Source: a virus
Virus record (IMG/VR): IMGVR_UViG_3300020179_002092
Location: 1 to 64,000 of that record
Length of the DNA: 64,000 nt
Strand: one strand, 5' to 3'
The position numbers and the translations under genes were made by a program. The notes beneath the pieces are model-generated. The model saw only the letters and a program-made list of their open reading frames with translations, searched no databases and was not told the origin of the DNA. Within the stretch, counting starts at the first letter, position 1, and each line of letters starts with the position of its first letter. Shown one piece after another: positions 35,612-63,800 of this stretch.

Positions 35612-38209
35612 TTAGTATGCCCAAGCTTCATTAATACTTAATTCAAATGGAGTTACTTTTTCGCTGCGCACATTTAATAAAATACTAGTTTTTAAACCAC
35701 TACTTGAATTAATAAAAAATAATTCTCTTTGATTTTCTATTTCACCAGGACCTGTATTAGTTTTAAGTTTTTCGTTTCCTATAATATGTCTAGTAATAGT
35801 TAATATATTTTTATTTCCAAGAGGATCACTAGAATTATTAAATGCTAAAGATTGTGCATATTTTTCTTCACTTAAATGTGGATTTATTAAATAACTTGCT
35901 TTGTCTATATTTGGATCTTTTAAAGATTTCAATCTTAAATGTAATTCGTAAACTTCTAGTTCATTTAAAATTTTATCCATAATACCTGCTTGAGCTAAAA
36001 ATCCTGGTGCAGCATGCTTAGTAGTAGTATTCTTAACTTTACTATTCATAGCACCAATTTTATCAATTAACCAACTTTGATATGCTAAATTTAAAGTAGC
36101 TACTAAAATACCTTCTACATAGTACTTAGTAATTCCTCTAGATTGTTTGGTTAAATTTTTAAATATTTTAAAAGGTCCCATAGGCACAGTAGTACTTTCA
36201 GAGTCTACAGGGTTCCATCTACCTTCTACTTCTGCAGAAGTATCACTTAGTACTTTCGTAATTACTTTTACTTGAGCAGGACCAGTACCTGGCGCTCCAT
36301 TATCTGGTTGATTAGTTGGTAAAAATCTTTGATTAAACCCAAAGCCAACAAAATCTTTGTTAATTATTTTGTCACCAACTTTTAAATCTCGTAAAAATTT
36401 AGTTCCTACTCCATTTAATAAGGATTTTGCTGCTACAGCAGGTTGACTAGTAGTGGCAGTTATAGCAGGAAGATTTTGAGTCCAGCAAGTTCCTTCAATG
36501 TCCGGACCTTCTGATTCTGAAGTAACTATAAGAGTTTGCCAATCAGATAAAAATCCTATAACAGGAGGGTTAGAGCGTTCTTCAATAACACTATCATAAT
36601 TTACTATATTAAACTTACCTGAAACAGCAGTAGTTGAATATACAGAACTAGCAGGATCAGGCCATTTAGTAGTTTTTCCAATAATAATTTCTAATATATT
36701 ACTATTATTAGTTGTGTCTAAGTGTACAACATTTTCACTTGTTAAATAACCTTTGTTAGGTGGCGGAGCCGGAGGCGGTGGATTAATACCTCTAGTGCCT
36801 ACATCATTATCAGTAGCAACAAATAATGATTTATTAGCTAATACAGTGCTTACACCTTGAGTTCTAGGTTTCCATAAATAAAATCTAGTATTATGTTTTT
36901 TTATTTCTACTGCGGGTGATAGACCACCAGCAATACTTTTAGCTTGTAATGCTGTTGGTTGTTGATATACTTGTGTATTTACATTTTTAATTTTAATGAC
37001 TTCATACGTTCCACCACTAAGATCTAAATATCTAAAATTTGGCGAATCTATTTGTACCTTTAAAGGTCCCCAAGATACGTTTGTTTGTAGATCAAAAAGA
37101 GCAGTCCAACGTCTATTATTATCATAATAATCTCGAACATCAAATGCCCCATTTGCAGTACTGTCTATTTTTAATAAACTAACTCCATTGTTTGCATCTA
37201 AATAAGTTTTAAATGCAGTAGCACTAAAGTTTTTTATACTATTTATATAATATTTACTAGATATGTTAATAACATTGGGACTAAATCTAGGATTATCTAA
37301 ATCATCTACATCATAAATTTTTTCTGATCGAATATCTAGTCTAAATCCATCAACTATAATTTTCTTTATAGCATTTATAAAAATTATTTCCTGGTTAGTG
37401 CCTTCTTTTTTAGAATTCTCTGTTCTTTTTATTTCGCTTTCAATAACAGTTCTATCTACAACAATATTGATAGTTTTAGTTATACCGCTACTAATTATTA
37501 ATTTATCATTAACGGCAATAGTTTCTATTTCTTTATTAAAATTACCACTAGTACCTATAAAATTATCAGTAATTATAACTGGTGTAGAACTAGCAACTGT
37601 AGGACCTACTATACTATCACTCTTTAATAATATAATTACAGTTTCAGAACCTTCTAATACTAAATCCCCAATTAAAGTTAGTGTTAAACTAGCTGTACCA
37701 GAACTATTTACATAAATTACTCCAGAATTAGTAAATTCAACAAAATCAACAGCACTTGTGTTTCCTGTATTTATCCAAAATAGTGGAGTACCAGTAGCAA
37801 CATTTGTAGTAGTAATATTCCATGTTATACTACTTCCTTCGACTACAGTTGTAGTCGAAGGAAATATTGTATAAGTTTTTTCAGTAGAAGTATCAGCAAC
37901 ATTAACAGTAGATGCAGTAGCAACCAAAGTTCCCAGTAAACTATTTGTATATAGCCTAATAATTATTGTTTCTACCCCTGCCTCTGAAGTAAAATCTTCA
38001 GCTATAGTAATAGGTAAAATTGCAAAATTATTATTTATTACTACAGAACCACTATTAGATCCGCTAGTAAAATCAGCTCCTGTTGTTGTTCCTACATTTT
38101 CCCAAAATAACTGAGTTCCATTTGCAACACCAGTTGTAATAATAGTCCATGTAATTGAACCACCCTCATTAACTGAACTAGAATTAGGATTAATACTATA
38201 TGTTGCCAT
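35612..38209 (-). CDS. virion structural protein with two N-terminal Calx-beta/Ig-like domains
   Basis: Repeated SVNEGGSITW..ADF..D..E.ETIII; GVGTKF..LKVGD motif. Confidence 0.7.
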   Translation of the reverse strand: MATYSINPNSSSVNEGGSITWTIITTGVANGTQLFWENVGTTTGADFTSGSNSGSVVINNNFAILPITIAEDFTSEAGVETIIIRLYTNSLLGTLVATASTVNVADTSTEKTYTIFPSTTTVVEGSSITWNITTTNVATGTPLFWINTGNTSAVDFVEFTNSGVIYVNSSGTASLTLTLIGDLVLEGSETVIILLKSDSIVGPTVASSTPVIITDNFIGTSGNFNKEIETIAVNDKLIISSGITKTINIVVDRTVIESEIKRTENSKKEGTNQEIIFINAIKKIIVDGFRLDIRSEKIYDVDDLDNPRFSPNVINISSKYYINSIKNFSATAFKTYLDANNGVSLLKIDSTANGAFDVRDYYDNNRRWTALFDLQTNVSWGPLKVQIDSPNFRYLDLSGGTYEVIKIKNVNTQVYQQPTALQAKSIAGGLSPAVEIKKHNTRFYLWKPRTQGVSTVLANKSLFVATDNDVGTRGINPPPPAPPPNKGYLTSENVVHLDTTNNSNILEIIIGKTTKWPDPASSVYSTTAVSGKFNIVNYDSVIEERSNPPVIGFLSDWQTLIVTSESEGPDIEGTCWTQNLPAITATTSQPAVAAKSLLNGVGTKFLRDLKVGDKIINKDFVGFGFNQRFLPTNQPDNGAPGTGPAQVKVITKVLSDTSAEVEGRWNPVDSESTTVPMGPFKIFKNLTKQSRGITKYYVEGILVATLNLAYQSWLIDKIGAMNSKVKNTTTKHAAPGFLAQAGIMDKILNELEVYELHLRLKSLKDPNIDKASYLINPHLSEEKYAQSLAFNNSSDPLGNKNILTITRHIIGNEKLKTNTGPGEIENQRELFFINSSSGLKTSILLNVRSEKVTPFELSINEAWAY

Positions 38210-38221
38210 TATTTATCCCTG

Positions 38222-40642: not shown

Positions 40643-40917
40643 TATTCAGATTCCTTTTCAGAATAACCTTCTCCCAACATCCAGTTTACAACTTCTTGTG
40701 CATCTATCCACTTATACCGTTGACCATTTTTATCAAATCTTAGTGGATGTTTATAAAAAATTCCAGAATATGTTTCAACAGTTTTTTCCATTTCTTCTAC
40801 TATTTGCTTTTCTATTTTAAATAATTTAGCAACAGTATTATTTTCTTCTAATACTACTTTATAGGTTTCAATTATAGTAATATGTTCACTAATAGCTATT
40901 GGTATTTCAAAAATCAT
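40642..40917 (-). CDS. small hypothetical protein (possible paralog of 60610..60804)
   Basis: C-terminal P..NG..W...E...W motif. Confidence 0.6.
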   Translation of the reverse strand: MIFEIPIAISEHITIIETYKVVLEENNTVAKLFKIEKQIVEEMEKTVETYSGIFYKHPLRFDKNGQRYKWIDAQEVVNWMLGEGYSEKESE

Positions 40918-40929
40918 TTTGTATATTCC

Positions 40930-41385
40930 TTAATTACTGTATATAAATTGCGTATATAAATCCTCGGCTCCAATACCAGGTTGTATTATATCAACTGTTA
41001 AATAGTCTCCTTGAATCATAGCAATTTCACTAATGCTACTGCTATTTGCATATGTAGCATTTGCTAAAATATTTAACTCTTTAGTTAATAAACCATTTTT
41101 TCTAACACCTATTTTTATAAGATTGTTAGTAGGTTTTACTAAATACGCTCTAATTTCAATTATAGTCAGTGTAGAAGGAGCATACCAACGTTTTTTACCA
41201 ATGTTCTTGGTTAATTTACCAAATATAGTATGATTAAAATGACTAAGAGGTACTGTTATAGTATTACCATGTGTAGCTGTTAAAACTTGACCTTCGGCAT
41301 TTACCGTTATATTAGCCGCAGTATAATAGCCTGGCAATACACCTGTAGGCGTAATATTAGTTTCTGTGATTTTTGTTGATGACAT
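40930..41385 (-). CDS. short fibre/adaptor protein
   Basis: N-term TGV.PG.YT.ANITVN shared with 44814..47843; C-term GDYLTVD domain shared with 60806 gene. Confidence 0.65.
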   Translation of the reverse strand: MSSTKITETNITPTGVLPGYYTAANITVNAEGQVLTATHGNTITVPLSHFNHTIFGKLTKNIGKKRWYAPSTLTIIEIRAYLVKPTNNLIKIGVRKNGLLTKELNILANATYANSSSISEIAMIQGDYLTVDIIQPGIGAEDLYTQFIYSN

Positions 41386-41880: not shown

Positions 41881-41918
41881 TTGTTGTTTTCCTTATAGAA
41901 AATAATAATATACTGTAT

Positions 41919-44804
41919 TTATGTTAGACTGAATGTGACGGTGCCTGTACCGGCTGTGAATGACAGTATTCTAGATCCCACTACAGCGGTTGTGTTGTTA
42001 GTGAATGTCAGGCCAGCTGATACTGTGGCTGTATATACGCTAGGTATACGCAGTACAACTATGCCGGAACCACCTGCGCCTCCTGCGTAAAAAGTATTAG
42101 GCCCAGTAGCAAAACCACCGCCACCTCCTCCTCCCCCGGTATTAGCTGTACCAGATGATCCTGTAGCCGAAGTAACACCATTGCCACCGCCCCCTGAACC
42201 ACCTGTTCCAGCGGTGCTTGTTTGTCTAAAGTCTGGAGCACCTCCACCCCCACCTGCATAAGTTACAGTTGAGCCAGTTATTACGGAATTTGCCCCAGCA
42301 CCGCCATTTCCTCCCGCAGATGTTGTTGCATTTACTCCAATAGCATTTGCACCGCCCCCACCTGCTCCAACAGGATAACCTCCAAAAACTCCAGTTCCTC
42401 CAGTATTTCCTTGGCTAGGTGAAGTTGATGGCGTATTTCCTGAACCTCCTACTCCATTAGTAGGGTTAGAACCACCCCCGCCACCGCCCGAACCACCGCT
42501 TAATCCGTTTTGATTTGGCGCTATAGTACAACCCCCGCCACCGCCTTTTGTAGAAGTAATTGTGCTGAAAACAGAATCTGACCCAGACACTCCTACATTT
42601 TGAGTTCCAGATGCGCCGCCTGCGCCACCACCACCAACTGTAATCTCATAGCTAGTTCCTGTGTTAACACTTAATACTGTTCCGGCCCTGAAACCTCCTG
42701 CGCCACCTCCACCACCACCATTACCACTAGAGCCGCCGCCGCCTCCGGCCACTACCAAGTATTCTACTGTGAGTGGGGGTGGTGTAGTTTGTAGCGCAAA
42801 AGTACCAGTACCGGCGGTAAATCTAGTATGACGATATCCCCCACCTTGGCTGATGGTTTCCGCAGTTAAGCCGGTGCCGATGCTAGCGTAGTAAGTGTCA
42901 GGATAGCGTACAATAACTACGCCGGAACCGCCGGCACCACCATTACCGGCTCTACCAGCTCCACCACCTCCACCTGTGTTGGCATTACCTGATGTGCCGT
43001 TTCCAGTACCAAACACACCAGTACCTCCTCCTCCTGCGCCACCTGCACCAGCTGTGCCTGTAGAAGTTGATCCACCTCCACCTCCAGCATAAGTTACTGA
43101 CGATCCTGTGATAGAAGATGATAAGCCGGCACCGCCGCTACCTCCACCTCCAGTAGTGCCGGTAGTACCTACTGCTCCGGCACCTCCACCTCCACCCCCT
43201 GCTCCGTAGGAACCCGATGAGTGATTTGCAGTACCACCGTTATTTCCCTGACTAGGTGTTGTAGCAGGTGTATTTCCTAAGCCGCCGGCATAGGACCCCG
43301 AAGATAAGGCTATTGATCCTCCACCACCTGAGCCACCATTTCCAGCATTTGCGCCTCCATAGGCTTGTCCACCTTTGCCTCCACCAGTAGAAGTAATAGT
43401 ATGAAAAGAAGAATCAGAACCATTAGTAGGATTTGTAGAACTGCTTTGTATTGCGCCCGCTCCGGCAGCTCCAACAGTTACAGTATATGATGTTCCTGCA
43501 ACTATCGAAAAATCAGCTGCTGTTCTAAATCCACCTGCACCTCCACCTCCAGAAACATCAGTGTAACCTCCACCCCCACCACCACCGGCTACCACTAGGT
43601 AATCTACCGAAATAGGCGGATTATTACTAAAAAATACATTACCAGTGCCCGCGGTAAAGGTTGATACTTTGTTGGCGCCGATGGTGACAGTTGATGTGGT
43701 CAAGCCCGAGCCTGGGATCATGTAATACACTGCGGGATAGCGTAGGATCACAATACCAGAACCACCTGTCCTTCCGCCTACAGAGTCGCCCGGAGTTATC
43801 CAACCACCGCCCCCACCGCCCCCACCAGTGTTTGTAGTTCCCGCAGTTGATGATGCTACTAAAGAATTAGGTGTTTCTGAACTTAGGCTACCGTTTCCAC
43901 CACCACCTTGTCCACCTAAACCTTGCTTTGACGCAGGTTGTGATCCGGGGTAAAGAGCTCCACCACCACCTCCACCACTGTAATAAGTAAGAGTACCCGT
44001 AATTAAACTTGTTCCGCCAACACCACCATTTGCCGCAGTAGTTAGTAATCCACTTGCACCAATGCCACCAGCACCGCCACCAGCACCACCTGCATAATTT
44101 GGAGGACTTCTATATCCGGCACCACCTGCATTACCTTGACTAGGCGTGGTAGAAGGGGTATTACCCGGCCCACCTGCATTTCCTGTAGATCCACCGGCTT
44201 GCCCACCGCCACCTGATCCACCTGATCCACCGGTATTGCTATAGCCGTTAGCAGAACTACCGCCACCGCCGCCGCCACCTGTTGAGGTAATACTACCAAA
44301 TATACTATTACTACCCGCACTACCATTATCAAAAACCGCTCCTGGTCCTGTTCCACCGGCCCCCACTGTAACTGTATAAGTTGTAGTAAAATTTACTGTA
44401 CTAGTTCCTGTTCTAAATCCACCTCCACCTCCACCTCCTGCAAGATATCCACCCCCACCTCCGCCACCGGCAACTACCAAATAATCTACACTCATTGTAG
44501 TCAGCGAGCTAGTAACACCAGATACCGTGATCCAAGCTGCCAAGGTGGCATCATAGTATTCAACACGATCTAAGTCGGTGTTGAATCGAACATAACCATC
44601 ATTTACCGAAGTCGGGCGTTGGGCTGTGGTGCCGCGAGGTAGGCTGAAGAATCCTGTGCTGGTATTGTCTCGATCCGACACATCAGCAGGCCCGGTTATG
44701 CTAGACCCAACTTTATTCCAGCTATTACCGTCATAACGCCACACAATATTATTATAAGTATAAGTTTGGTTAGTGCTAGGGCTTAAGGGAAATGATATTG
44801 GCAT
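41919..44804 (-). CDS. glycine-rich fibre/adhesin, three tandem Gly-rich domains
   Basis: 3x V(D/E)YLVVAGGGGG...GGSGxVxxR; LPRGTTAQRP neck. Confidence 0.85.
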   Translation of the reverse strand: MPISFPLSPSTNQTYTYNNIVWRYDGNSWNKVGSSITGPADVSDRDNTSTGFFSLPRGTTAQRPTSVNDGYVRFNTDLDRVEYYDATLAAWITVSGVTSSLTTMSVDYLVVAGGGGGGGYLAGGGGGGGFRTGTSTVNFTTTYTVTVGAGGTGPGAVFDNGSAGSNSIFGSITSTGGGGGGGSSANGYSNTGGSGGSGGGGQAGGSTGNAGGPGNTPSTTPSQGNAGGAGYRSPPNYAGGAGGGAGGIGASGLLTTAANGGVGGTSLITGTLTYYSGGGGGGALYPGSQPASKQGLGGQGGGGNGSLSSETPNSLVASSTAGTTNTGGGGGGGGWITPGDSVGGRTGGSGIVILRYPAVYYMIPGSGLTTSTVTIGANKVSTFTAGTGNVFFSNNPPISVDYLVVAGGGGGGGYTDVSGGGGAGGFRTAADFSIVAGTSYTVTVGAAGAGAIQSSSTNPTNGSDSSFHTITSTGGGKGGQAYGGANAGNGGSGGGGSIALSSGSYAGGLGNTPATTPSQGNNGGTANHSSGSYGAGGGGGGAGAVGTTGTTGGGGSGGAGLSSSITGSSVTYAGGGGGSTSTGTAGAGGAGGGGTGVFGTGNGTSGNANTGGGGGAGRAGNGGAGGSGVVIVRYPDTYYASIGTGLTAETISQGGGYRHTRFTAGTGTFALQTTPPPLTVEYLVVAGGGGGSSGNGGGGGGAGGFRAGTVLSVNTGTSYEITVGGGGAGGASGTQNVGVSGSDSVFSTITSTKGGGGGCTIAPNQNGLSGGSGGGGGGSNPTNGVGGSGNTPSTSPSQGNTGGTGVFGGYPVGAGGGGANAIGVNATTSAGGNGGAGANSVITGSTVTYAGGGGGAPDFRQTSTAGTGGSGGGGNGVTSATGSSGTANTGGGGGGGGFATGPNTFYAGGAGGSGIVVLRIPSVYTATVSAGLTFTNNTTAVVGSRILSFTAGTGTVTFSLT

Positions 44805-44813
44805 GATTTAATC

Positions 44814-47800
44814 CTAGTTAAATGTTACAGTACCGGTTCCGGCTGTGACTGAATATACTCGATAACCTGTTACCGCGGTGTTTGATTGAGTCACAGTCAG
44901 GCCAGCTGAAAATGTGGCTGTGTATAGATTGGGTATGCGTAGGATGACTACGCCAGAACCACCTGTACCGGCCAATCCGGTACTAACATACGAACTGCCA
45001 CCGCCACCGCCACCGGTGTTTACTAATCCTGATCCGGCTGCTCTTGTATATACAGAAGAAGCATTTAATAAAGCACCATCGCCTCCTCCCCCAAATCCAC
45101 CTGCTCCGCCACCGCCCGACGCTCCACTGTTTCTTAAACTACTAGATCCACCACCGCCACCAGCATAACTCACAGATGAGCCTGTTATAGACAAGTTAGC
45201 ACCTATACCACCAGCGCCACCCGAACTACTACCGGTTCCATTTCCTCCTATACCACCAGCACCGCCGCCTCCGCCGCCGTCGTAGGTGGTATTCATTGTA
45301 CCATTACCACCTGTATTACCTTGACCTGAGGTTCCAGCTGCTCCTGTATTATTTGTAGAGCCACCTAATCCACCTCCACCGCTTCCACCAGACACAGCCG
45401 GGCCAGGTATATTACCTGCGCCATATCCGCCACCAATAGCAGTAAAGGAAGAAAAAATACTATTACTACCAGAAGTTTGATTTACAGAAGGACTATATTG
45501 TCCTGCTGTGCCGCCACCCCCTACACTAACATTATAAGGAACACCGGATTGAATGTTTGTTCCTGTCCCTGTTAAGAGTCCACCAGCTCCCCCACCACCA
45601 CCAGTACTAGAACCACCGCCACCTCCGCCAGCCACTACCAAATAATCTACTGTAAGTGGTGGTGTGGTGGTGAATGAGATTGATCCTGTGCCCGCAGTAA
45701 ATCTTGTGTATTTCTCTGCTGCATTTATTGTGACTGTTTCTGCGGTGAGTCCGGTTCCGAGATTGATATAGTAGTTGGTAGAATAGCGTAGAATGACTAC
45801 ACCACTGCCACCTGTGCCACCGTTGCCGTATGTTGTATCATTATTTCTATGAGAAGCGCCACCGCCACCACCTGTATTAGCAGTACCATCACCACCTGCA
45901 TTAGGTGCTCCCGTCGCCCCAGAATTTCCGCCTCCACCCAATCCGCCAGAACCTGGTGTGCCTCCAGTATATGTTCCGCCGCCGCCTCCACCAGCATAAT
46001 AAGTAGACGATCCTGTAATAGAACTTAGTGCTCCTATCCCGCCATTACCACCGGTGGTAGAGGTTCCGTTAGCACCAACAGAACCAGCACCTCCACCACC
46101 ACCAGAACCATAATTTCCTGTACTAACACTACCGCCACCATTGTTGCCCTGACTAGGTGTTGTGCTAGGGGTATTTCCTGCACCAATGGCTCCGCTGTAC
46201 CCTGCCCCACCACCAGAACCGCCGCTGCCACCTGCACCCGACCCTGTGCCCCCGCCCTGTCCCGAAGTACCACCGAATCCACCGCCTGTTGTGGATATAC
46301 CCGAAAATGCACTACCGCTTCCAGGAGAACCTTGTGTTTGAAGTGAACCAGATCCAGTGCCCCCACTACCACCAGCACCAACTGTTACAGTATAGGTTGT
46401 ATTAAGTTGTATAGTACTTTGTGTACTAGTTAATAGTCCTCCTGCTCCACCTCCACCCCCCAAGCCTCTTACACCTCCACCGCCACCAGCAACTACTAGA
46501 TACTGTACAGCAATGGGCGGTGTTGTTGAAAAACTGACAGTGCCAGTGCCAGCTGTGAATGTGATGATTTTGAATCCACCTACTATAACAGAGCTTGATG
46601 TTAGCCCAGCTGATACTGTTTCATAATATAGTATAGGATATTTGATAATAACAATACCAGAGCCGCCCGAATAACCGCCCTGACTTCCGCTGCCACCACC
46701 GCCACCACCACCGGAATTTGTTGTACCTGCTGCTCCAGCAACAGTGCCGGCGCCTTTTCCGCCCCCACCTAAACCACCAGTACCGCCATTGGTTCCATTG
46801 AAAGTTCCGCCACCGCCACCGCCAGCGTAATATCCAGTAGAAGGTGATCCACCATGGCCAGCTGCACCGAAAGATGAAGCAAATGATGGACCTATTAGAC
46901 CACTTCCGCCATTGCCACCAGTTCCTCCAGATGGTCTGGCTGATCCTGCACTACCAGCACCACCACCACCAGATGCATCTGTTGTATCGCTACCCAGAGT
47001 CGCGCCATTTTGACCTTGTGTAGTTGAAATTTCGCCTGAAATAGGAGTTATTGCAATTGCAGCCCCACCAGGGCCATTATAACCAGCGCCACCACCAGAA
47101 CCCCCAGTAAGACCTGGACTACCTGGCGCAACACCGCCACCGCCACCGCCACCTTTTGATGTAATAGAGTGTAAGATTGAATCGCTGCCTGTTGATCCAC
47201 CACTGGCGCTACCTGTGTTTGTACTTCCTGCGCCACCCCCACCTATAGTAATTGTATAATTTGTGTCTGACAGAAGAAATAAATTAGTACCATATCTCAT
47301 TCCTCCAGCACCGCCACCGCCACCATGACGAGAGCCACCTCCACCTCCACCAGCGACTACTAGATACTCAATATCAAAGCTAGTGGAAACAGCAGCACCA
47401 GCTGTCTGTTGTAGGGCCATCCATGATTGATAAGTTGAATTATAGTATTCTACTTGTAGGGTAGTAGTATTATATCTAACATATCCTGATTGTGGTGTTA
47501 CAGGACGCTGTGCTGTGGTACCAGCTGGTAAACTTATAAAATCTGTAGCTGAATTTGGTTGTCCGCTGACAGCCGCAATATTGGCTGAGCCCCCTCCACC
47601 ACTGACCACTGCCCAAGCATTACCAAAGTAAGCATTGAGGTCACCAGTTTCTGAATTCAACCATAAGTTGCCTTCCCCTGATCCAGCTGGTCGAGTACCA
47701 CTTACTGTAACCGATGCTCCGCCTCCACCACTACTAGCACTGGTAATTTGTCCAGCTTCATTAACCGTAATATTGGCATGAGTATAGCTGCCTGGGGTAA

Positions 47801-52356: not shown

Positions 52357-52623
52357 TTATAACACAGGAAAGGCTCCGGTTGGTGCAGTGAAGTTAGCTG
52401 TGTATCGTGCATATCCCGTGGTCAATCTTAAATCTTGCAAGTAACCGTTAAAGTATGCAGCCCCTGCACCGCCTCCACCACCTGTGGCAACTTCTTGTGT
52501 AGTGGCTACCTGCGTGCCGCCAACACCGGTACCTGTGGGCAGTACAATAGTATTACCTGTGGCTGTTATAGTAGCTGTGCCAATCTGTAAGCTGTCACCA
52601 ACAACAAAAGAAAAATTAGGCAT
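52357..52623 (-). pseudogene. internally deleted LamG fibre gene remnant (N-anchor fused to terminal LamG strand)
   Basis: C-term YFNGYLQDLRLTTGYARYTANFTAPTG mirrors the end of 47853..52298 without the rest of the domain. Confidence 0.6.
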
Positions 52624-52656: not shown

Positions 52657-55600
52657 TTACGTATAGAAAACTTCGGTGGCAGTTAATCTATGCACTGTGT
52701 AACCGCTTATCGTACTAATTTCACCACCCACTGCTTTAGGAGAGCCTAAATATTTTATAATAATAACACCTGACCCACCTGATGCTCCGCCAGCAGTGAC
52801 ACCGTATACTCCACCATAAGCGCCGTAACCGCCGCCACCACCGCCGGTATTAGGACTACCAGTTTGTGGAGAAGTACCACCACAAGCACTGGCGCCTGAC
52901 CCACCACCTCCTAAACCTCCAGCTGACCCTGAGCCACCTTCCGACCCTCCTCCTCCACCGCCACCATAATAAGTGTTAATTCCGGTGATATCAAACTGCC
53001 TGCCTATTCCTCCTACTGTACTAGCGCCGCCACAGTGGCCTCGGTTTGAAGCCGAATATCCTGACCCAGGTGTAGCACCAGGACCAGCACCACCTCCACC
53101 TCCTGCGTATCCTGCACCGTTAGAGCCGTAGGCTGCAAAAGGAGGTTGCGGTGTTTGAATACTGATGTAATTATTTTGCCCGCCGCCACTGCCTCCGTCG
53201 CTGCCTAATCCACCAGATGCAGATCCGCCACCGCCTCCACCGTAAGCAGTATAAGTATTACTACCTATAACTATGCTGGTGTTGCCGCCTGCTGAAGAAT
53301 TCAACGTTCCATTTACACACCCTGCACCTCCAGCACCTACTGTACAGGCCAAAGATGTTCCTTGTGTAAGAGTAACTGATGTAGCATGTAGTATACCACC
53401 AGCACCTCCGCCGCCACCAGCCCCGCCATAGTAAGTTCCGCCGCCTCCGCCACCACCTGCTACTAATAAAATTTCTGCAGAGAAGGGGGTAATTACGCCC
53501 GTACTTATAGTAATGTTAAAACTTCGATCTTGATAAGCAGCATTTAAATCAGACACTCTGACTACAAAAGAAAAATTAGCAGTGGCTCCTGCATCCTCAC
53601 CAACCCCTGATATAAGTCCCGAACTACTATTTAGAGTAATTCCAGCTGGTAAGTTCCCTGAATACACCGTATAATTTAATGCGCCATCCCCTCCAGCCAA
53701 AAGCTGAAAGCTGTATGCCACATTGACTTGCGCTGGTGGCAAATCGCCAGCGGGAGTTATCCAATAAGGTGCAATAATACTAACCGCTGTAATATAAGAA
53801 ACACCGTTACCGGTTATGAATACGTTACTGGTATAAGAGCCATTTACTGTGGCTATAACCTGGGATTTAGCACCGTTATCAAAGGTCATAGTATCGCCTA
53901 TGATTTGCATATTCATTCTAGTTAAATGAGCACCCGACGTATCTACAATTGTGTTACTTTGAAATGTCAACAATTTTACTTGATCACTGGTAAAGGCTAC
54001 TAAATTGCCACTGGCAGCTTGACTGCTGGTTAAATTACTAGTGGCAGGAGTAAAATTACCTGAATAAGCAGCAACACCTTTTAAGATACGCAAATTACTA
54101 ATCATACCATTAAATGATACACTCCAAGTCTGACTAAATCCTACATTTAGCTGACTAGTATAATCATAGATATTAAATCCCGCTGTTACATTCAATCCGG
54201 CCTCTACGCCATTTTTGAACCATCTTAAGTTTGTACCTGATCTAACCAACGCCCAGTGTTCCCAAACTGCTGTGCCTACATCCGCTGTAGAATAAAAATC
54301 TTGTGTGCCTGCATACCTGACTACTAGCTTATTGGTTTGTGTGCTGTTTCTATAAATCTGCCAACCTTGCGTAGCGTCTCCAGTTTTATGTCCTACAACA
54401 CCGCACAAGTTGGTTTGACTAGACCAAGCTACTCTACTATAAAGCCAGAATTCTACAGTAAAATCATCTAAGTAGAAATTAAAATCGTCTGATGTAGCGG
54501 CTACTATCTTATCTCCGGTTCCATCAAAGGTTACTGACCAGGACGTACCTGCATTTCCAAAAGGATTTAGACTAGTTACAGCAGCATTACCATACTCCGC
54601 TAATTCTTTCCTATTAGTAGCATTTACAGTTAGCGTAGAATTAATAGTAGTCCCAGTAAAATTATAGCTAGATTGATCCATTGATAATGTAACTTGATTA
54701 GCACTAGATGGATCATATATATAAATACTATTGTATCCGGTACCTGTTAAATTATCTGCGGTAGTGCCTGTTTGAATTGCTGATGCCATACCTCTATTAA
54801 CTAGCCATATTCTGCCTGTACTATCTATTCCATATGCTCGAACATCTAAACTAGTTGTATTAAGATTTGTCCATCCTGATATCGGACTAAATTCTAATTT
54901 AGCTACTCTGCCTATCTGAAAAACTAATAGCGTGTCTCCAGAGTCACTAACAGGAACCCATGATCTTGGCATGTCATAACTTGTAGGCCAATTATACACA
55001 CTGTGAAACGTTAATTCGTGATCATTGCCTCCTACAGAATAAGTTATCCAAGCTCTTTGTTTAATATTACTAAATCTTTCGTTTATATAGTTATGTATGC
55101 TTTTTTCTGTAATAAGGAAGCTTATATATGTAATATTATTTTTTACAAAAACATGTGGCTTTATCCACCAGGTATTACTGCTGTTAGCATTGTAATTATT
55201 ATTACTAGCTACTTGACCATATGTAGAAAAAGTATCAGGTCCTGGATATGCAACACTACATGTAGTAGATGTAACTTGGCCTGTTAGTTTATTCCAAGTA
55301 AATTTTCTAGGTTCTAATATGCCTGAAACATTATAATGGCTGCTATAAAATGTACAGTAATAACTGTTTGTATTTACGAAGTTGCTTGGAAATTGGTATA
55401 TGACGCCAGTATATCCGCCCGTTATTCCAGTTAATATTGTACTTGTACTAGTACTAACGGCTGATCCTGTAAAGCTAGGGTTACCTATTCTAATTACTGA
55501 ATATTCATGTGTATTGCAATTAACTTCTAAAAAATAATCTGTACCAAAATAATCTGATCCCATGTAGAAATGAATAATATTAGTTGTAGTTCTAATATTA

Positions 55601-56178
55601 TAAGTTGTGAGACCGGCCGGATCCATGAGCATTAATACTACTGCGGTAGTATTATTATCTTGATTTAGTCCTATCCAATTACCATCCTCACGCAATCTTA
55701 TAGGAGTAGTCCAATCATTTTGAGTAGTAGTACGTGTTTGGGCAAACGTATCTAAGTTTTCACCTACCCACACGTCTTGTCTCATATTATCGGTAGTAAT
55801 GTCTCTAGGATAAAACATGTACCATCTGTCAGCAGTGCTGGCATAAATTATTTTTTGCGGTGTAAAATTATAGTCTAGAAATAATAGCCACGGATCCCAG
55901 CGTCCTATACCAGCAGGCCATGCTTGTCTACTATCTGCCCAACTATTACCAAATTTACCAACAGTCATGACCACTGGCCAGTCTTTCCAGTCTGCGGCTG
56001 CTGTAGTAGTAGTATTCCAAGTATTATCACTATGCCAGAAAGATTCTCCAGGTCTTGGGGTTAAATCATTGACATTTAGTGCTTGATTTTCAACAAAAAT
56101 TCTACCATATCTATTATCCGGATCTTCTATTACCCAATTATAGCTTTGATTTCGTTTAACATGTACTAACAATGGCAT
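52657..56178 (-). CDS. EDPxP-family virion protein extended with LamG, Ig and Gly-rich domains
   Basis: IEDPDN..IFVEN N-term; GIDSTGRIW; FDGTGD LamG; SGNLPAGITL; LLVAGGGGG module. Confidence 0.75.
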   Translation of the reverse strand: MPLLVHVKRNQSYNWVIEDPDNRYGRIFVENQALNVNDLTPRPGESFWHSDNTWNTTTTAAADWKDWPVVMTVGKFGNSWADSRQAWPAGIGRWDPWLLFLDYNFTPQKIIYASTADRWYMFYPRDITTDNMRQDVWVGENLDTFAQTRTTTQNDWTTPIRLREDGNWIGLNQDNNTTAVVLMLMDPAGLTTYNIRTTTNIIHFYMGSDYFGTDYFLEVNCNTHEYSVIRIGNPSFTGSAVSTSTSTILTGITGGYTGVIYQFPSNFVNTNSYYCTFYSSHYNVSGILEPRKFTWNKLTGQVTSTTCSVAYPGPDTFSTYGQVASNNNYNANSSNTWWIKPHVFVKNNITYISFLITEKSIHNYINERFSNIKQRAWITYSVGGNDHELTFHSVYNWPTSYDMPRSWVPVSDSGDTLLVFQIGRVAKLEFSPISGWTNLNTTSLDVRAYGIDSTGRIWLVNRGMASAIQTGTTADNLTGTGYNSIYIYDPSSANQVTLSMDQSSYNFTGTTINSTLTVNATNRKELAEYGNAAVTSLNPFGNAGTSWSVTFDGTGDKIVAATSDDFNFYLDDFTVEFWLYSRVAWSSQTNLCGVVGHKTGDATQGWQIYRNSTQTNKLVVRYAGTQDFYSTADVGTAVWEHWALVRSGTNLRWFKNGVEAGLNVTAGFNIYDYTSQLNVGFSQTWSVSFNGMISNLRILKGVAAYSGNFTPATSNLTSSQAASGNLVAFTSDQVKLLTFQSNTIVDTSGAHLTRMNMQIIGDTMTFDNGAKSQVIATVNGSYTSNVFITGNGVSYITAVSIIAPYWITPAGDLPPAQVNVAYSFQLLAGGDGALNYTVYSGNLPAGITLNSSSGLISGVGEDAGATANFSFVVRVSDLNAAYQDRSFNITISTGVITPFSAEILLVAGGGGGGGTYYGGAGGGGGAGGILHATSVTLTQGTSLACTVGAGGAGCVNGTLNSSAGGNTSIVIGSNTYTAYGGGGGGSASGGLGSDGGSGGGQNNYISIQTPQPPFAAYGSNGAGYAGGGGGAGPGATPGSGYSASNRGHCGGASTVGGIGRQFDITGINTYYGGGGGGGSEGGSGSAGGLGGGGSGASACGGTSPQTGSPNTGGGGGGYGAYGGVYGVTAGGASGGSGVIIIKYLGSPKAVGGEISTISGYTVHRLTATEVFYT

Positions 56179-56179
56179 A

Positions 56180-56572
56180 TCAGCTCCAGAAAGGTTGATT
56201 TTCCGCTGTACCGGGGGTAGTTATTACTGAAACAGGTATTGTTGGCGCATAATCATTACTATCTAACACAATTAACTCTACTATACCATTTACATTACTA
56301 GTCGAACTAATAGGTAGAGATATATCACTTTGTACGCATACTGGTATACTTATAGGATGACTCCATGTAGTATTGGTTGTAGATACAACTTCTAATACAC
56401 CTAATATCGTAGACTTTGTGCTGGTTACTGAAATAGTACAAGTATTAATTTCATACTTATAAGTTGTATCTGCTATTTCCAACATTAAATGATTTTCATT
56501 ATACGTAGAAATTAATCCTGGTTCTGTTTTTACACCACCTTGAAAAACTATTTGATTAATAAGCTCTGACAT
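56180..56572 (-). CDS. hypothetical structural protein
   Basis: ORF coupled to neighbours. Confidence 0.65.
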   Translation of the reverse strand: MSELINQIVFQGGVKTEPGLISTYNENHLMLEIADTTYKYEINTCTISVTSTKSTILGVLEVVSTTNTTWSHPISIPVCVQSDISLPISSTSNVNGIVELIVLDSNDYAPTIPVSVITTPGTAENQPFWS

Positions 56573-58347: not shown

Positions 58348-58355
58348 AAAAATTC

Positions 58356-60596
58356 CTATAAATTAATACTAGCAGAAATTTGTGTTTGTCCTGGCCCTAC
58401 AATCGTGACTGGTACTGAAACTGAATTTGAATTACTAGTGGTTACTTGTACAATATTGGTATTATTTGCAAATAATATATTTCTACTATTTGCTGTTAAT
58501 GTTATTGTGCTGGCCACCCTATTATTATAGAAATCATATGCGTTAACTATAATATTGGTACTAATTGCCGTGCCTTGATACGTGTATCTAGTAGTTGTTC
58601 CTGGTACTGGATTGCTTAAAGCTATATCAACTCTTGTTGGCATATTTTCTTTAAACATATGAATATCTACTCTACCTAAGTTAGGATTTCTAGTAGTTAC
58701 CCAGATTCTATTTTGGCTATCTACTCCTATACCTCTGGCTCTAATACTAGCTATATATCCTGGCTGCCAGCCTGTTGAAACATGCATAGTTCCACTGGCT
58801 GTACCACTAATCAGAGTACCACTATCATTAACCGTTACTACAAAAGTAAAACTATTTTCGTTCAATACATTATTAACTCTATAACAACCATTAGGTGCAT
58901 TACTATCTGCCACGGCCCCACTAGTTGTTATAATTTCTCCTGCTATTAAACCATGAGCAGTTTTATTTACTGTAACGGTAGTTAGTCCACCAACTACTGA
59001 ATAAGACCAAGAGGTTGCGTCAAATTCTGTTGTATCAAATGTATATATACCTGTACCTGCTGTACTAGCTATAACAATTTTATCGCCATTTGTATTGTAC
59101 GGCACCCATGTTAGTGGAAAGTCATTAGGAGTTAAAAAACTAATAGCGCTATGAAAAGTTAGTTGACTATCGTTTGCTTCAATTTTAAAAGTTAGCCATG
59201 TTCTGGCTTTTACAGTTGGTAATCTTGCACTATTGCTATAAATAAATTTATCAATAACAGTAAAAGTTATGTAGTTTACATTATTTTTTGTAAACTGATG
59301 TCCTCGTTGCCAATAGTTATTTATACCAAACGTGTTATAGTTATTAGCAGTAGGTATAGCAGCATACGTTGCAAAACTTGTTCCTGCCGGAAAATTTTCT
59401 ATACAATTAGTAGTTGCAATTGTACCAGTAGATTTTGTCCATTCTATCCTTAATACAGCTAAATCTGTTGTACTAAAAGGGGCGTAATAAAATACCTTTC
59501 GATTTTCTGTAGCATGTCTTATGTTACTAGGTAATGATGGAAAAACATTATTTGTAAGTGTTCCAGAAGGCAATTGACTGCTAGTTACTGTTGTTTCTGT
59601 AAATGGAGCACTAAGAGTATATTTATATATACTTAAATTCGCTGGATTAATTTGCTCTACTCTGCAAAACCATATATGACTAGGGTCTGTACCCATAAAA
59701 AATTTATAACCACCTAGATTCAATTGAGTGTAAGTAGGTCTGCTAACTCCGGCTGTTGTGCTATTATCTTCGTAAGTATAATTGTGTCCGTATAGAACAA
59801 CTGCTCTACACCCATTACTGGCAATTGCTGCAGCTTGTGCTTCATTTTCAATACCCCAACCTCTATACGCAGTACCTGTTACTGTAACCGTACCTCCAGC
59901 AGTTCCGCTAGGAGCTGTACCAAGTGTAATAGTAAAACTATTAGCATTAGGTACTGACGATATAGAAAATAGTCCATTAGGGGGGTTAGTCGAAGAAATA
60001 GCTCCAGATACTGTTACATAGTCTCCGGTAAAAAATCCGTGATTACCTTTATTAATAGTAATAGTTACACCAGAGTAAGACCACGAATCTGCAGTAAATG
60101 TTATATTTTCTACATGTTCTAATAAATGTACATAGTAAAAAGTATCTGTATGTCTCCAGCTATTGCTACGACGAGTCATCTCTTTACCCAGCCACCAGTC
60201 TCCTTGAGTATCTCCAGCTGAGGAGGTTCTAGGGTAGGTGGCCACAGTAGTACCTAAAGCACTTCTCCATACTCTAGTAGGTTTTGCAGACTCTAGGTCC
60301 AAGCTAAGCAGCCAATTATCAAATAAGCCCATCATAGCCCATAAATCATTATTACTTGCTGCCCATGCGTTACTATCTATATTATTTAATTGAATAGGAC
60401 CGTAATTATCCCATTCTCCGCTATTTGTGTAAGTATTATACCTAGTTTGCCACTGCCATATTTCTAGTGAGCGAGGAGAAAGATTTGTAAAATTAAAAGC
60501 GAAATTATCTAAAAATATTCTATTTTTGGTGGGATCTGGATCCATCCAGATTGATGGCCATTTATTGTAAGACTTGCAGGTAACTAATTTTGCCAT
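58356..60596 (-). CDS. EDPxP-family virion protein with two inserted FCCH-like domains
   Basis: MDPDPTKNRIFLDN, PSNIRH..RKVFY, GVDSQNRIW; 2x HG..GD/GE..T.SGA..PNG inserts. Confidence 0.7.
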   Translation of the reverse strand: MAKLVTCKSYNKWPSIWMDPDPTKNRIFLDNFAFNFTNLSPRSLEIWQWQTRYNTYTNSGEWDNYGPIQLNNIDSNAWAASNNDLWAMMGLFDNWLLSLDLESAKPTRVWRSALGTTVATYPRTSSAGDTQGDWWLGKEMTRRSNSWRHTDTFYYVHLLEHVENITFTADSWSYSGVTITINKGNHGFFTGDYVTVSGAISSTNPPNGLFSISSVPNANSFTITLGTAPSGTAGGTVTVTGTAYRGWGIENEAQAAAIASNGCRAVVLYGHNYTYEDNSTTAGVSRPTYTQLNLGGYKFFMGTDPSHIWFCRVEQINPANLSIYKYTLSAPFTETTVTSSQLPSGTLTNNVFPSLPSNIRHATENRKVFYYAPFSTTDLAVLRIEWTKSTGTIATTNCIENFPAGTSFATYAAIPTANNYNTFGINNYWQRGHQFTKNNVNYITFTVIDKFIYSNSARLPTVKARTWLTFKIEANDSQLTFHSAISFLTPNDFPLTWVPYNTNGDKIVIASTAGTGIYTFDTTEFDATSWSYSVVGGLTTVTVNKTAHGLIAGEIITTSGAVADSNAPNGCYRVNNVLNENSFTFVVTVNDSGTLISGTASGTMHVSTGWQPGYIASIRARGIGVDSQNRIWVTTRNPNLGRVDIHMFKENMPTRVDIALSNPVPGTTTRYTYQGTAISTNIIVNAYDFYNNRVASTITLTANSRNILFANNTNIVQVTTSNSNSVSVPVTIVGPGQTQISASINL

Positions 60597-60609
60597 GTTG
60601 TATCCTAAA

Positions 60610-60804
60610 TTATTCTTCTGATATTTCGGCTATAATAGGGGGGCCATAGGCTAATTTAACTGATTCCCACCAGATTAAAGATTCTGCTTCTGATTGCCAC
60701 GGTAACCCGTTGGTAGGGTTATGAGGCTGTTTTATTATAAGCCTATCATTCTCATAGACTTTTAACGTGTATTCAATAAATGTAGTTGAAAATATAGTAG
60801 TCAT
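60610..60804 (-). CDS. small hypothetical protein
   Basis: QPHNPTNGLPWQSEAESLIWW; GAGAA upstream. Confidence 0.65.
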   Translation of the reverse strand: MTTIFSTTFIEYTLKVYENDRLIIKQPHNPTNGLPWQSEAESLIWWESVKLAYGPPIIAEISEE

Positions 60805-60805
60805 A

Positions 60806-63800
60806 TTATTCTCTGTTATATAAAAAACTAATTACAAGATCAGTTCCCGCAATAGAACTACCTTTTTGCAGCACATCAACTGTAAAATAATCGCCTTTTA
60901 TTGAATTAATATTAACGTTAGATTCAATAGAATTAGTAGTAGCAGCTATAGTTAACTGTGCCACTTCGCTAGCATTTTTCTTTATACTTAAAATTATACT
61001 TGTACCGGTAGGGGCTGTTGAAACCTGTGCTCTTAGTTGGCTGACTAAAATATTACTTTGTATCCACCATCTACTGGTGCCTGTAGAAATATTTACTGTA
61101 CCAGGTAAATTATAGTGCCTTTCTAATATTGTAGGCTGTCCTTGTATACCTTGTATACCTTGTATACCTTGTATACCTTGTTGTCCTATTGTACTAGTAA
61201 TTTGCCAAGTAGTTCCATCGTATATAAATTCATATGTAGTACCGCTTATATCTAGTAATACATCATCTGCGTAACCTTCTATAGTACTACTATTTCTAGC
61301 AACTGTTAAGTTAATATTAGCTAAATTAGCTCCATCTGTAATAACTACGTAGTTACCTACTGCAGGACTACTAGGTAGTGTAATAGTAAATGTACCACCA
61401 CTAGTATCAACTATTAATTTATCACCACTTATAGCAGTATAATTTGCTGTTTTTCTTGACCACAGTGAGCTTCCACCAGTAGCTGTAAAAGTAATAGATT
61501 TTGGAACACTACTAGGGTTGGTTGTTATTTGTACACCACTGCCAGCTATAAATTTAACAGTATCTAAGCCACTAGCTACTAAATCTGCCTGACCGTCTAC
61601 TTGCCAAGTTTTAAAAGTAGAATTCATACCTACTTTTACAGCACCACTACCTAGGTTAGTTACATCAAAACCACTGTCGCTATCAAATCTTAGTGCAGTA
61701 ACACTAGACACTGCTTGACTAGTTACATTAGAACTATTTATAAGGCTAACTTCCATTAAAGTACCACTAGTACCTTGTATACCCTGACCAGCAAACTCTC
61801 CGTGTAATCCTTGTATACCTTGTACGCCTTGTACGCCTTGATTTTGATTAAAACCACCACCTTGTATACCTTGCGTACCCTGTATACCTTGTGGACCAAG
61901 ATTAGTAATATTAATAATACCTGCCATTGACCCATGATGTTGGCAATTATAATATAATGTATTTGGTGCATCATAAGGTACAACAAATGTAATGGTACCA
62001 TTATCAATACCATTATTGGTTACTCCAGTGTTGTATTGATCACCTGTACCAGTTGTTTGAGTCGTTTTTATCCAAAAAGTATGACCACTAGCAGAAATAG
62101 AAAAGTAATAAGTAAATCCTCTTATAAAGTTAAGAGTAGGATTATTAGATCCATTTATTACATAGGCACCACTTCCAGAATTAGTAACAGTATAGGTAGC
62201 TCCTCCTACTAATCCTTGTATACCTTGGTTGCCTTGTGGCCCTTGACATCCTTGTGTACCTTGAGTACCTTGTGGTCCCTGTATACCTTGAATACCTACA
62301 GCTCCGCTAAGATCACTTTGATAGCTCCAGCTAGTACCAGTCCATAAATATAGTTTACTATTATCAGGATCTTCTGAATTAATTGTATTTACTAAAGCAA
62401 ACTGACCTCCTACAATATTTGTAGGATTAGTATCTGCTAATAATGCAGATACTGTTGAATATACTTTTGCAATAACAAAACCTAAACCAGTATCGCCTCG
62501 TAATCCTTGTAGTCCCTGTATACCTTGTATACCTTGTATACCTTGATTTTGATCAAAGCCACGTCCCTGCAATCCTTGCAGCCCTTGCAGCCCTTGCAAC
62601 CCTTGCAACCCTTGCAGCCCTTGCAACCCTTGATTCTGATCAAAACCACCACCTTGTAATCCTTGTACACCTTGTGGTCCAATTACTCCTTGTTCACCTT
62701 GTGGTCCTGTATAACCTTCTGGTCCTTCTGGCCCAATTTGCCCATGTTCACCTCGTGTACCCTGTAATCCTTGAGACACTAGTAATGTCCAATTGTTTCC
62801 TTCAATAGGTATAATACCAGAAGTAAGTGTAAATATCATTGATCCACTTATAGTTCCTTCAGTAAACCCTATAGGTGTTCCACCAATAGCTGTACTTAAT
62901 TTAAATTGAAAACTAGCGTCCGGTACAGAAATAATATAGTAGTATGTTCCTAACGGATTATAACCGATAATTGTTGCTGTGCCACCATCATTAGTTCCAG
63001 ATACATATACTCTATCTCCTACCCTTAATCCCTGATCTAAATTAACTGGATTACAACTAATTATACCTGTAGAATTTATACTTATATTAGTTAGTGTTTC
63101 AGTTATAAAATTTTCTTTTACTAGCCAGTTACTACCAATATAGTGAACGATATCAAAATATTCATAATTTGCTGTTGAATTCCAGATACCTTTAGGAGTA
63201 AATCTTCTACCTTGTGTACCTTGCGTACCTTGACTTTGATCAAATCCACCACCCTGTATACCTTGTGGTCCTTGTGGTCCTTGTGGCCCATATGGTCCTT
63301 GTATACCTTGATTTTGGTCAAAACCACCACCCTGTAGTCCTTGTCTACCTTGTGTACCTTGTCTACCTTGTGTACCTTGTCTACCTTGTAGTCCTTGTAT
63401 ACCTTGATTTTGATCAAAGCCACCACCCTGTAGCCCTTGTTGACCTTGTGGCCCTTGTGGCCCTTGTATACCTTGTGATCCTTGTATACCTTGATTTTGA
63501 TCAAAGCCACCACCCTGTAGTCCTTGTGTACCTTGTGTACCTTGTGTACCTTGTGTACCTTGTCTACCTTGTGTACCTTGTGTACCTTGATTTTGATCAA
63601 AGCCACCACCCTGTAGTCCTTGTGTACCTTGTACACCTTGTGGTCCTTGTCTACCTTGAGTACCTTGAGTACCTTGATTTTGATCAAAACCACCACCCTG
63701 TAGTCCTTGTCTACCTTGTGTACCTTGTCTACCTTGTGTACCTTGTCTACCTTGTGTACCTTGTGTACCTTGATTTTGGTCAAAGCCACCACCTTGTAGT

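Follow-up and report, generated by a model that had tools for sequence, protein, structure and literature searches.

In the DNA of an uncultured water phage (record IMGVR_UViG_3300020179_002092 of IMG/VR, 74,495 bases, judged 66% complete) we found two copies of a module of adjacent fibre genes; the window analysed was the stretch of 64,000 nucleotides (nt) formed by bases 1-64000 of the record. The module has four parts: a fibre protein ending in a jelly-roll domain (the fibre-end domain, or 'knob'), a small protein with a tryptophan motif, one or several large proteins with an EDPxP-type N-terminus and a predicted beta-propeller fold, and a protein bearing a short C-terminal tail. This four-part unit, duplicated here, is conserved across T4-like loci, a podophage and jumbo phages; its parts are homologous from copy to copy, their order is kept, their folds were predicted, and they travel jointly from phage to phage. 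From sequence comparison and structural models we suggest that the knob may be a dock for separately made tip proteins, a reading to which we assign a probability of roughly 0.45. An earlier sequence-only reading of this DNA had described a three-gene module (fibre end, small protein, EDPxP protein); those three parts stand, while the tail-bearing fourth part had been missed, and the end domain turned out to pair with unrelated cassettes as well.

The four parts and their duplication

The last ~105 residues of a 1939-amino acid (aa) collagen-like fibre aligned with residues 44-149 of a 151-aa protein (31% identity over 109 aa, BLASTP E 8e-13), so the duplication of the fibre-end domain noticed in the sequence-only reading is real. 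As the copies are only 31% identical, an assembly artefact could be ruled out; no third copy was found in the whole 74.5-kb record. The GXY triplets of the long fibre stop ~10 residues before the knob, and the knob is the C-terminus of the protein. In a model of the 151-aa protein built on a 13-sequence alignment (mean predicted local distance difference test score, pLDDT, 81) residues 45-151 form a jelly-roll with pLDDT ~80-92. Its best structural match was the C-terminal 'triple jelly roll' of the long tail fibre protein gp015 of Agrobacterium phage 7-7-1 (Z 10.0, root mean square deviation 2.3 A over 102 residues), with further matches to the carbohydrate-binding module (CBM) CBM36 (Z 9.1), collagen VIII NC1 (Z 8.8), the C1q head (Z 8.5), 4-1BBL (Z 8.3) and capsid jelly-rolls (Z 8-9). 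CBMs and capsid jelly-rolls score level with C1q and tumour necrosis factor (TNF) proteins; the modelled fold is clear for the class, a C1q/TNF-like jelly-roll, and not for the superfamily. Pfam at E<=0.1 gave no family, including C1q (PF00386) and TNF (PF00229), for the 151-aa protein or the fibre end, and a profile search of Protein Data Bank (PDB) sequences with the knob returned nothing relevant. By analogy with C1q-type proteins, in which a jelly-roll likewise caps a collagen triple helix, the knob on the collagen fibre is very probably trimeric.

The knob motifs RWYAP, GDYLTVD and DLYxQFxY are conserved across phages with very different stalks and tail types. Carriers of the knob extend from 151-240 aa, with an anchor and the knob only, to >2100 aa, their stalks being unrelated, collagen or not; carriers of 151-180 aa having nothing but anchor and knob are common. 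The idea that long and very short stalks bear the same end domain could thus be extended: the stalk is freely exchanged over this whole range of lengths, and the variety of stalks indicates that recombination keeps knob and cassette together while the stalk is replaced. With an alignment as query, the knob was detected in longer proteins (200-1015 aa) of at least 152 clusters, a part of them having collagen or Mtd_N stalks; a single-sequence word-index search for such long carriers had found one protein.

For the two small proteins, of 64 and 91 aa, BLASTP gave no alignment and a profile was needed. A hidden Markov model (HMM) made from six small proteins of other phages only was run against all 945 stop-to-stop open reading frames (ORFs) of the record; it placed the 91-aa protein first (2.9e-6) and the 64-aa protein second (6.3e-4), the next ORF being at 0.07. 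Because an independent profile ranks both at the top, we regard them as homologous via the C-terminal motif QPW..DG.R..W...E...W, as had been supposed, even though they do not align pairwise. Neither these two nor three homologues from other loci matched a family in Pfam or PHROGs, the tail fibre assembly chaperone families Caudo_TAP (PF02413) and DUF4376 (PF14301) included, and a search of the ESM Atlas gave nothing usable for the small protein.

Between the 746- and 806-aa EDPxP proteins there is an alignment of the C-terminal 146 aa (30%, E 2e-12) and a weak one of the N-terminal 26 residues (E 0.02). Their suspected relationship is therefore correct, but there are more than two of them: an HMM of ten EDPxP proteins from other phages detected members of 806 aa (4e-83), 746 aa (3e-22), 1173 aa (N-terminal half, 6e-19) and 591 aa (3e-17). 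By this profile the genome has four EDPxP paralogues, three of them in the first module. The family phrog_20698 matched the C-terminal ~100-160 residues of the 806-aa (1e-12), 746-aa (6e-11) and 591-aa (1e-8) proteins and phrog_22549 matched the 746- and 591-aa proteins; both are annotated as of unknown function, and only the last part of each profile was covered. The EDPxP family is large, with 650 clusters at 50% identity (E<=1e-3), 428 of them at <=1e-10.

The model of the 806-aa protein (99 sequences; pLDDT 75, predicted template modelling score 0.80) is an all-beta, compact monomer. The VIA top 50 matches of this model were all beta-propellers, with spans from ~1-143 to ~669-748, many alignments starting at residue 1 and ending near 712. 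The best match was the N-terminal domain of Nup88 (Z 12.6, 4.4 A over 334 residues), 6-phosphogluconolactonases followed at Z 12.4-11.5, and a PLL lectin was at Z 9.9; Foldseek gave only low-scoring matches to DDB1-type propellers (TM 0.13). The predicted fold is that of a beta-propeller, a circular array of four-stranded blades. Residues 717-806 form an immunoglobulin (Ig)-like domain in the model, and a feature search of the ESM Atlas returned a Big_1-like Ig match, otherwise generic propellers. The first ~45-50 residues, with the EDPxP motif between two strands, were modelled at pLDDT 90-94; they are probably part of the propeller, within the blade closing the ring with the conserved C-terminal blades. 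A free docking peptide seems unlikely for the EDPxP motif: the N-terminal residues are modelled as beta-strands with pLDDT >90, and the propeller alignments begin at residue 1.

The EDPxP N-terminus is conserved, with an N-terminal (BIGN) profile matching at 1e-4 to 1e-25 in nearly all loci. Between the 806-aa protein and a 71%-identical orthologue from another locus, identity is 92% in the N-terminal 40 residues, 80-95% in residues 640-760 and 47-70% in the middle. In longer relatives (the 1173-aa protein, P0160) the propeller is often at or near the N-terminus, with additional domains behind it. Pfam and structure matches revealed no trimeric stalk or baseplate-attachment family for the EDPxP protein; with no attachment element detected and a compact monomer predicted, it would need a site to sit on.

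The fourth part is encoded by the gene following the last EDPxP gene of a module, or the last gene of the alternative cassette described below. Its product varies from 63 to ~1700 aa and usually has, at its end, a Gly-rich linker and a short fixed C-terminal tail (e.g. ...EIQTWY, ...KQIWY, ...GPVQSWS, ...PVQSWSD or ...PESWE). The C-terminal pattern [QE]xW[YFSTEA]x0-2 was present in 34 of 47 unique module-following genes; among the remaining ORFs of these loci it was present in 7 of 705 (Fisher p 3e-41), most of the seven apparently representing this very gene where a locus is truncated. In the first module of the window the candidate for this part is a 130-aa protein, which can be aligned loosely with the 119-129-aa proteins at this position in other loci, with a shared MSxIVNQ start and a W-containing end.

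Gene order and joint inheritance across phages

We scanned IMG/VR in both directions; below, D, B and s stand for the genes of the fibre-end domain protein, the EDPxP protein and the small protein. An alignment of the end domain found 16 loci, with an EDPxP cassette or the alternative (ALT) cassette described below behind the fibre in 15 of them, the exception being one weak case. An alignment of the EDPxP protein found 69 loci, 13 of which end just upstream of the EDPxP gene; in each of the other 56 loci a protein ending in the knob (0-3 residues from its C-terminus) was encoded directly upstream. As many IMG/VR loci are near-duplicates, the 56 loci represent fewer lineages; the trees contained 54 distinct knob sequences. 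The gene order is more than a chance feature of this genome, and the proposal that the triad is a conserved unit is borne out by the neighbourhoods, in the end-domain scan with ALT cassettes counted.

The order D-s-B was found in most loci, D-B-s-B in 6, D-B-B-s-B in 2, and D-B with a gap of 295-340 nt in 12; in the two loci whose gap was read, one per clade, it holds a divergent ORF of 92 or 112 aa with a similar C-terminal pattern. The small gene directly precedes an EDPxP gene throughout (gap -51 to +14 nt, several overlapping). That part of the order fibre - small - EDPxP was correctly seen; the position directly after the fibre, in contrast, is not kept in D-B-s-B and D-B-B-s-B loci.

The ALT cassette consists of a 90-99-aa protein ending ...DNVWTEWTG and a 367-390-aa protein starting MYI (L013:7301-8723, L016:7345-8751, L014:12332-13737); in loci L015-L019 it lies just upstream of homologues of T4 gp13/gp14/gp15. 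Neither of its proteins matched a Pfam or PHROG family. Homology with the EDPxP cassette was rejected, as hhalign gave probabilities of 0.6% for the small family vs the ALT small protein (ALTS) and 0.1% for the EDPxP family vs the large one (ALTB); the two cassettes are analogous, not homologous. The tail is found behind the EDPxP cassette, behind the ALT cassette, which is unrelated, and, in Alteromonas phage R22Y (see below), behind genes of a third arrangement; the knob is thus the tail's only constant companion.

Mapped on the tree of the 54 distinct knobs, the cassette type (three labels) changes 5 times vs a mean of 18.2 after shuffling (0 of 200 shuffles as low), and the tail class changes 10 times vs 23.5 (0 of 300 as low). 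In three genomes with two modules (L014, L036, L041) the two knobs belong to separate clades, and each knob goes with a cassette or tail type of its own. One well-supported clade unites ALT and EDPxP modules having a common 'SW + polar' tail; the most divergent clade has a distinct tail, ...ELLISE. These trees show parts that have been inherited together, with stalks swapped around them.

The module of the window had no match in 50,697 GenBank phage records, at either the nucleotide or the protein level. When the compact EDPxP protein of another IMG/VR locus (L011) was compared with GenBank phages, only the C-termini of proteins of Ralstonia phages RP12 and RP31 and Bacillus phage BpSp matched. 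By the matches that follow, remote versions of the module exist in cultured phages, namely the jumbo phages RP12 (L094, 137258-151821) and RP31 (L096, 134004-148567) and the Alteromonas podophage vB_AmeP-R22Y. In the Ralstonia phages an annotated tail fibre (RP12 ORF153, RP31 ORF150) has a weak end-domain match at its very C-terminus (E ~1e-3 to 8e-3); behind it come a propeller homologue, a short protein whose end is ...GGGKGGGFHWR, a 138-aa protein that has the motif of the small proteins (QPWADAATAEAW; E 0.003-0.016), another two propeller homologues (1e-30 and 1e-37; three in total) and a last protein of 107 aa ending ...GSGGGFHWR. The weak ones among these matches lean on gene context. 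A 170-aa protein of collagen and end domain is encoded nearby (2.5e-7); in RP31 it is ORF140.

The RP31 virion proteome, 32 proteins identified by mass spectrometry in gel bands, includes both the fibre ORF150 and the 17-kDa ORF140 (PMC5468394 Table S3); end-domain carriers are therefore virion proteins. The observed mass of ORF150, 120 kDa, is above the theoretical 111 kDa (PMC5468394 Table S3), so the fibre is apparently uncleaved. In R22Y (PP212876.1, unannotated; L095:5273-8953) the end domain is on a 682-aa fibre (E 8e-26). Two unrelated proteins of ~280 aa come next, the latter of them ending ...SSPIQFW, and a small or EDPxP gene is absent.

The knob as a possible dock, and competing explanations

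In the mechanism that we infer, including the trimeric state, the contacts between parts and the binding of the host, a knob trimer would be the hub at the fibre tip. Propellers, made separately from the fibre but jointly with the small protein, would be fixed to the knob, with the small protein helping or bridging; the tail-bearing protein would probably attach by its tail on a flexible linker, as a second plug. The outcome would be a multivalent tip for binding the host, exchangeable and independent of stalk length.

Docks on fibres that accept exchangeable binding proteins are, in principle, already known from Klebsiella phages and T4. That the sequence-only reading did not recognise a described system is fair at the level of families, as none of the three parts it named (end domain, small protein, EDPxP protein) has a Pfam family; the principle itself is not new. 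In Klebsiella podophages KP32, K11 and KP34 a branching domain on the receptor-binding protein (RBP) RBP1 and a conserved docking peptide on RBP2 have been modelled (PMC6872550), and the dock-and-peptide system was confirmed by engineering (PMC13352976). Much as proposed here, a conserved domain sits on the fibre or spike, a binding protein conserved in a terminal segment is encoded by the gene that follows, the two permit exchange of the binding protein, and gene order mirrors assembly order. However, in Klebsiella phages a trimeric tailspike has the dock inside it, as a T4gp10-like domain close to the N-terminus, whereas the candidate dock here is a C-terminal jelly-roll knob; the Klebsiella plug is a free N-terminal peptide, whereas the downstream protein here is a predicted monomeric propeller with its conserved N-terminus within the fold; and the module has in addition a third protein, which is small, and a fourth that bears a C-terminal tail peptide. 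A sequence relation to the Klebsiella system was not detected, with no T4gp10-like match in Pfam or PHROGs on the fibre or the 151-aa protein.

The long tail fibre of T4 is built of serially encoded pieces, gp34-gp35-gp36-gp37, joined end to end, and has the chaperones gp38 and gp57A; the small gp35 is at the joint, gene order is assembly order, and all pieces except gp35 are fibrous trimers. Unlike the module, the T4 fibre has no jelly-roll knob, propeller or tail peptide, and no homology was found. In C1q, collagen VIII/X NC1 and Bacillus BclA (PDB 1O91, 6Z6V) a collagen helix directly precedes a C-terminal jelly-roll, as here, and the C1q-type jelly-roll trimerises and registers the helix; the knob, in contrast, has no Pfam match to C1q or TNF, its Z of 8-9 is within the generic jelly-roll range, and it also caps non-collagen stalks. 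For contractile injection systems, a catalogue of tail-fibre C1q domains has been published (PMC12923769). In phage 7-7-1 (PDB 9RKV) the fibre gp015 ends in a trimeric jelly-roll and a garland protein, gp014, from the neighbouring gene binds the lower fibre (PMC12796354); the garland proteins are homodimers in a ring around the baseplate, not tip proteins (PMC12796354). Although gp015 is the best structural match of the knob, identity is 13%, and 7-7-1 has no propeller partner. Alteromonas phages V22 (gp26/gp27) and A5 (gp8/gp9) have modules of a fibre and a cognate chaperone 'cap' that are common to unrelated phages (PMC10579305). There too a fibre end and its downstream partner move jointly among myo-, podo- and siphoviruses, and the partner binds the tip; those chaperones, however, are DUF4376 proteins of 176-240 aa, a family that the small protein of the module does not match, and behind the small protein comes a large propeller. 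The module is set apart by its parts (C-terminal jelly-roll, small Trp-motif protein, predicted monomeric propeller and C-terminal tail peptide), which have no sequence relation to the systems compared here.

In the main competing explanation, which we consider quite possible if short of probable, the knob would serve the fibre itself, nucleating its trimer and binding the receptor as its head, and the small protein would be a non-virion chaperone for the knob or for the propeller co-translated with it; propeller and tail-bearing proteins would attach elsewhere (baseplate, other fibres), their genes travelling with the fibre merely as a host-recognition cluster. Terminal heads of this kind are those of C1q, collagen VIII/X NC1, BclA and the RBPs of lactococcal phages. 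The structural matches of the knob fit such a role (collagen VIII NC1 Z 8.8, C1q Z 8.5, CBM36 Z 9.1, 7-7-1 fibre end Z 10), and so does collagen directly before the knob, as in C1q-type proteins. In D-B-s-B loci the small gene abuts the EDPxP gene rather than the fibre, which also fits, as does the RP31 proteome, where the fibre was detected and the propellers were not. Small genes behind fibre genes are classically chaperones, and whole host-recognition modules shift between unrelated phages (PMC10579305). Against this explanation, the small protein matches no chaperone family in Pfam or PHROGs, and the tail is conserved in myo-, podo- and jumbo phages with differing baseplates. Docking is favoured, moreover, because the propeller family was never seen without an upstream knob (56 of 56), because many carriers are anchor and knob only, because no attachment or trimerisation element was detected in the propeller, because the knob is conserved across differing stalks and tail types, which would be unusual for a receptor-contacting tip, and because the tail stays with the knob across three cassette types. 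Phage 7-7-1 offers a precedent, as its fibre ends in a triple jelly-roll with small neighbour-encoded proteins bound to the lower fibre.

A number of observations weigh against docking. Strict synteny is also compatible with a fibre, its chaperone and neighbouring genes, and most structural relatives of the knob (C1q, TNF, CBMs, 7-7-1 gp015) serve as terminal heads that bind a ligand. There are, besides, knobs in loci lacking EDPxP proteins, with unrelated cassettes, and the clustering of tails and cassettes on the knob tree could arise from simple linkage. The 130-aa protein is outside the strict tail pattern and fits it only loosely, and in none of the five D-B-s-B or D-B-B-s-B modules with a readable next gene was the tail on that gene. 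Finally, the RP31 proteome contains the fibre but neither the three EDPxP-like propeller proteins nor the tail proteins (PMC5468394 Table S3); this absence is weak negative evidence, as the list came from excised gel bands and the fibre itself was represented by only 5 peptides.

The same absence would be expected if the propellers were non-virion late enzymes or lectins (acting e.g. on host surface polysaccharide, or modifying fibres), located near fibre genes for co-expression only. Lactonase-type and lectin propellers are among the top matches (Z 12.4-11.5; PLL lectin Z 9.9), and the data leave every catalytic family possible. We find this improbable all the same: Pfam matched no enzyme family by sequence, adhesins of virions typically show an Ig-like C-terminus and fusions such as those found here with LamG, He_PIG and glycine-rich fibre domains, the propeller genes belong to an uninterrupted series of fibre genes spaced by 1-13 nt, and the RP31 list has the limits just given. 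As for a wider form of the docking reading, one could speculate that the knob is a general fibre-tip socket and the short C-terminal tail behind its glycine linker ([QE]xW[YFS]; FHWR in RP12/RP31) its plug, the two making up, with the small protein and propeller set, an undescribed connector system of T4-like, podo- and jumbo phages, by which a single fibre would bear several exchangeable binding proteins from separate genes; this we hold to be rather doubtful.

Surroundings of the modules and significance

The genes of both modules are on the minus strand (Table 1), which from 35612 past the end of the record is a continuous block of fibre-type genes with intergenic gaps of 1-13 nt. Besides the module genes, the block encodes three collagen-like fibres, an S8-type peptidase, and LamG-repeat and glycine-rich proteins; genes for replication are in the plus-strand half of the genome (family A polymerase, DnaB-like helicase, NAD ligase, SbcC-like ATPase, class II ribonucleotide reductase). 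Module 1 has the order fibre - small - EDPxP - EDPxP - 130 aa - EDPxP fusion.

Table 1. Genes and domains of the two modules, with positions in the window
Feature	Position	Strand	Remarks
Module 1
Collagen-like fibre, 1939 aa	60806..64000 in the window, gene to record 66625	-	MPAINFP N-terminal motif, long GXY runs, C-terminal knob; Pfam Collagen 3e-30, tail-fibre PHROGs
Fibre-end domain copy 1, ~105 aa, GDYFTVD	60806..61141	-	BLASTP E 8e-13 to copy 2; fold taken from copy 2 model
Small W-motif protein, 64 aa	60610..60804	-	Start 1 nt past fibre stop codon; independent profile E 6.3e-4, rank 2 of 945 ORFs
EDPxP protein, 746 aa, MDPDP variant	58356..60596	-	Predicted propeller family and C-terminal Ig-like domain; family HMM 3e-22; phrog_20698 6e-11
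Second EDPxP paralogue, 591 aa	56572..58347	-	Family HMM 3e-17; N-terminus MFEDPDPNN
130-aa protein ending ...AENQPFWS	56180..56572	-	Tentative tail-bearing protein; loose alignment only
1173-aa fusion: EDPxP-type propeller (N-terminal ~540 aa), then LamG, He_PIG Ig domain, glycine-rich domain	52657..56178	-	Family HMM 6e-19 over residues 250-537; Pfam Laminin_G_3, He_PIG, Gly_rich_2
Module 2
151-aa 'stalkless fibre' with fibre-end domain copy 2 (GDYLTVD)	40930..41385	-	AlphaFold2 model pLDDT 81, jelly-roll residues 45-151
Small W-motif protein, 91 aa	40642..40917	-	Stop overlaps next gene's start by 1 nt; independent profile E 2.9e-6, rank 1 of 945 ORFs
EDPxP protein, 806 aa	38222..40642	-	One predicted beta-propeller (~1-715, low-confidence inserts) and C-terminal Ig-like domain (717-806); family HMM 4e-83
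865-aa protein ending ...INEAWAY	35612..38209	-	Tail-bearing protein by position and tail; L009/L025 orthologue ends ...IENWAY

Short N-terminal motifs recur in otherwise unrelated fibre proteins of the block and are probably near-end attachment motifs. One of ~40 aa (TKI..TGV.PG.YT.ANITVN.EGQ) is common to the 151-aa protein and a 1009-aa glycine-rich protein (44814-47843, motif at 47724-47840; 51% over 39 aa, E 1e-6). Another, MP(A)I.FP...Y.Y......W, is common to the 1939-aa fibre (start at record 66625), a 961-aa protein (41919-44804) and fibres of two other loci (L011, L014).

Several neighbours of the modules are worth recording. The segment 41919-47843 encodes two ~1000-aa proteins, each with three repeats of a glycine-rich domain (Gly_rich_2, phrog_2295) that finish in a motif like ...FTAGTGTVTF; a domain of this family also ends the 1173-aa propeller fusion (52657-56178) and was found after D-B-s-B modules of other phages (L049, L055, L057, L060, L063). 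An 88-aa ORF (52357-52623) ends ...GYARYTANFTAPTGAFPVL, a copy of the C-terminal LamG-repeat motif (...RYTANFTPPTGPHRLK) in the adjoining 1481-aa protein; it could be a gene remnant or a small capping piece. Just past the window, between two collagen fibres (record 66645-68579; L004:6646-8580), a 644-aa S8-type peptidase-like protein is encoded, with matches to phrog_9158 (2e-69) and the protease family phrog_3677 (9e-28), and it may have a role in fibre processing or maturation. At the other end a lysis cassette adjoins the fibre block (34145-35624), comprising an endolysin (phrog_181, 3e-77), an 89-aa lipoprotein-like ORF and a 200-aa spanin-like membrane protein; a PhoH-like gene is located at 33116-33808.

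The host range of uncultured aquatic phages is largely unreadable from sequence, with fibre genes left unannotated. The module is common, with its 650 EDPxP clusters and the knob on at least 152 clusters of longer proteins, and it reaches cultured Ralstonia and Alteromonas phages. If the knob is a socket, it marks where exchangeable host-binding parts begin, and this would explain the 'stalkless' fibre genes of 150 aa; a connector pair would be added to the few known (T4gp10-like branching domains, gp38-type tips). Should docking fail, four uncatalogued families of considerable size still gain a defined context and predicted folds.

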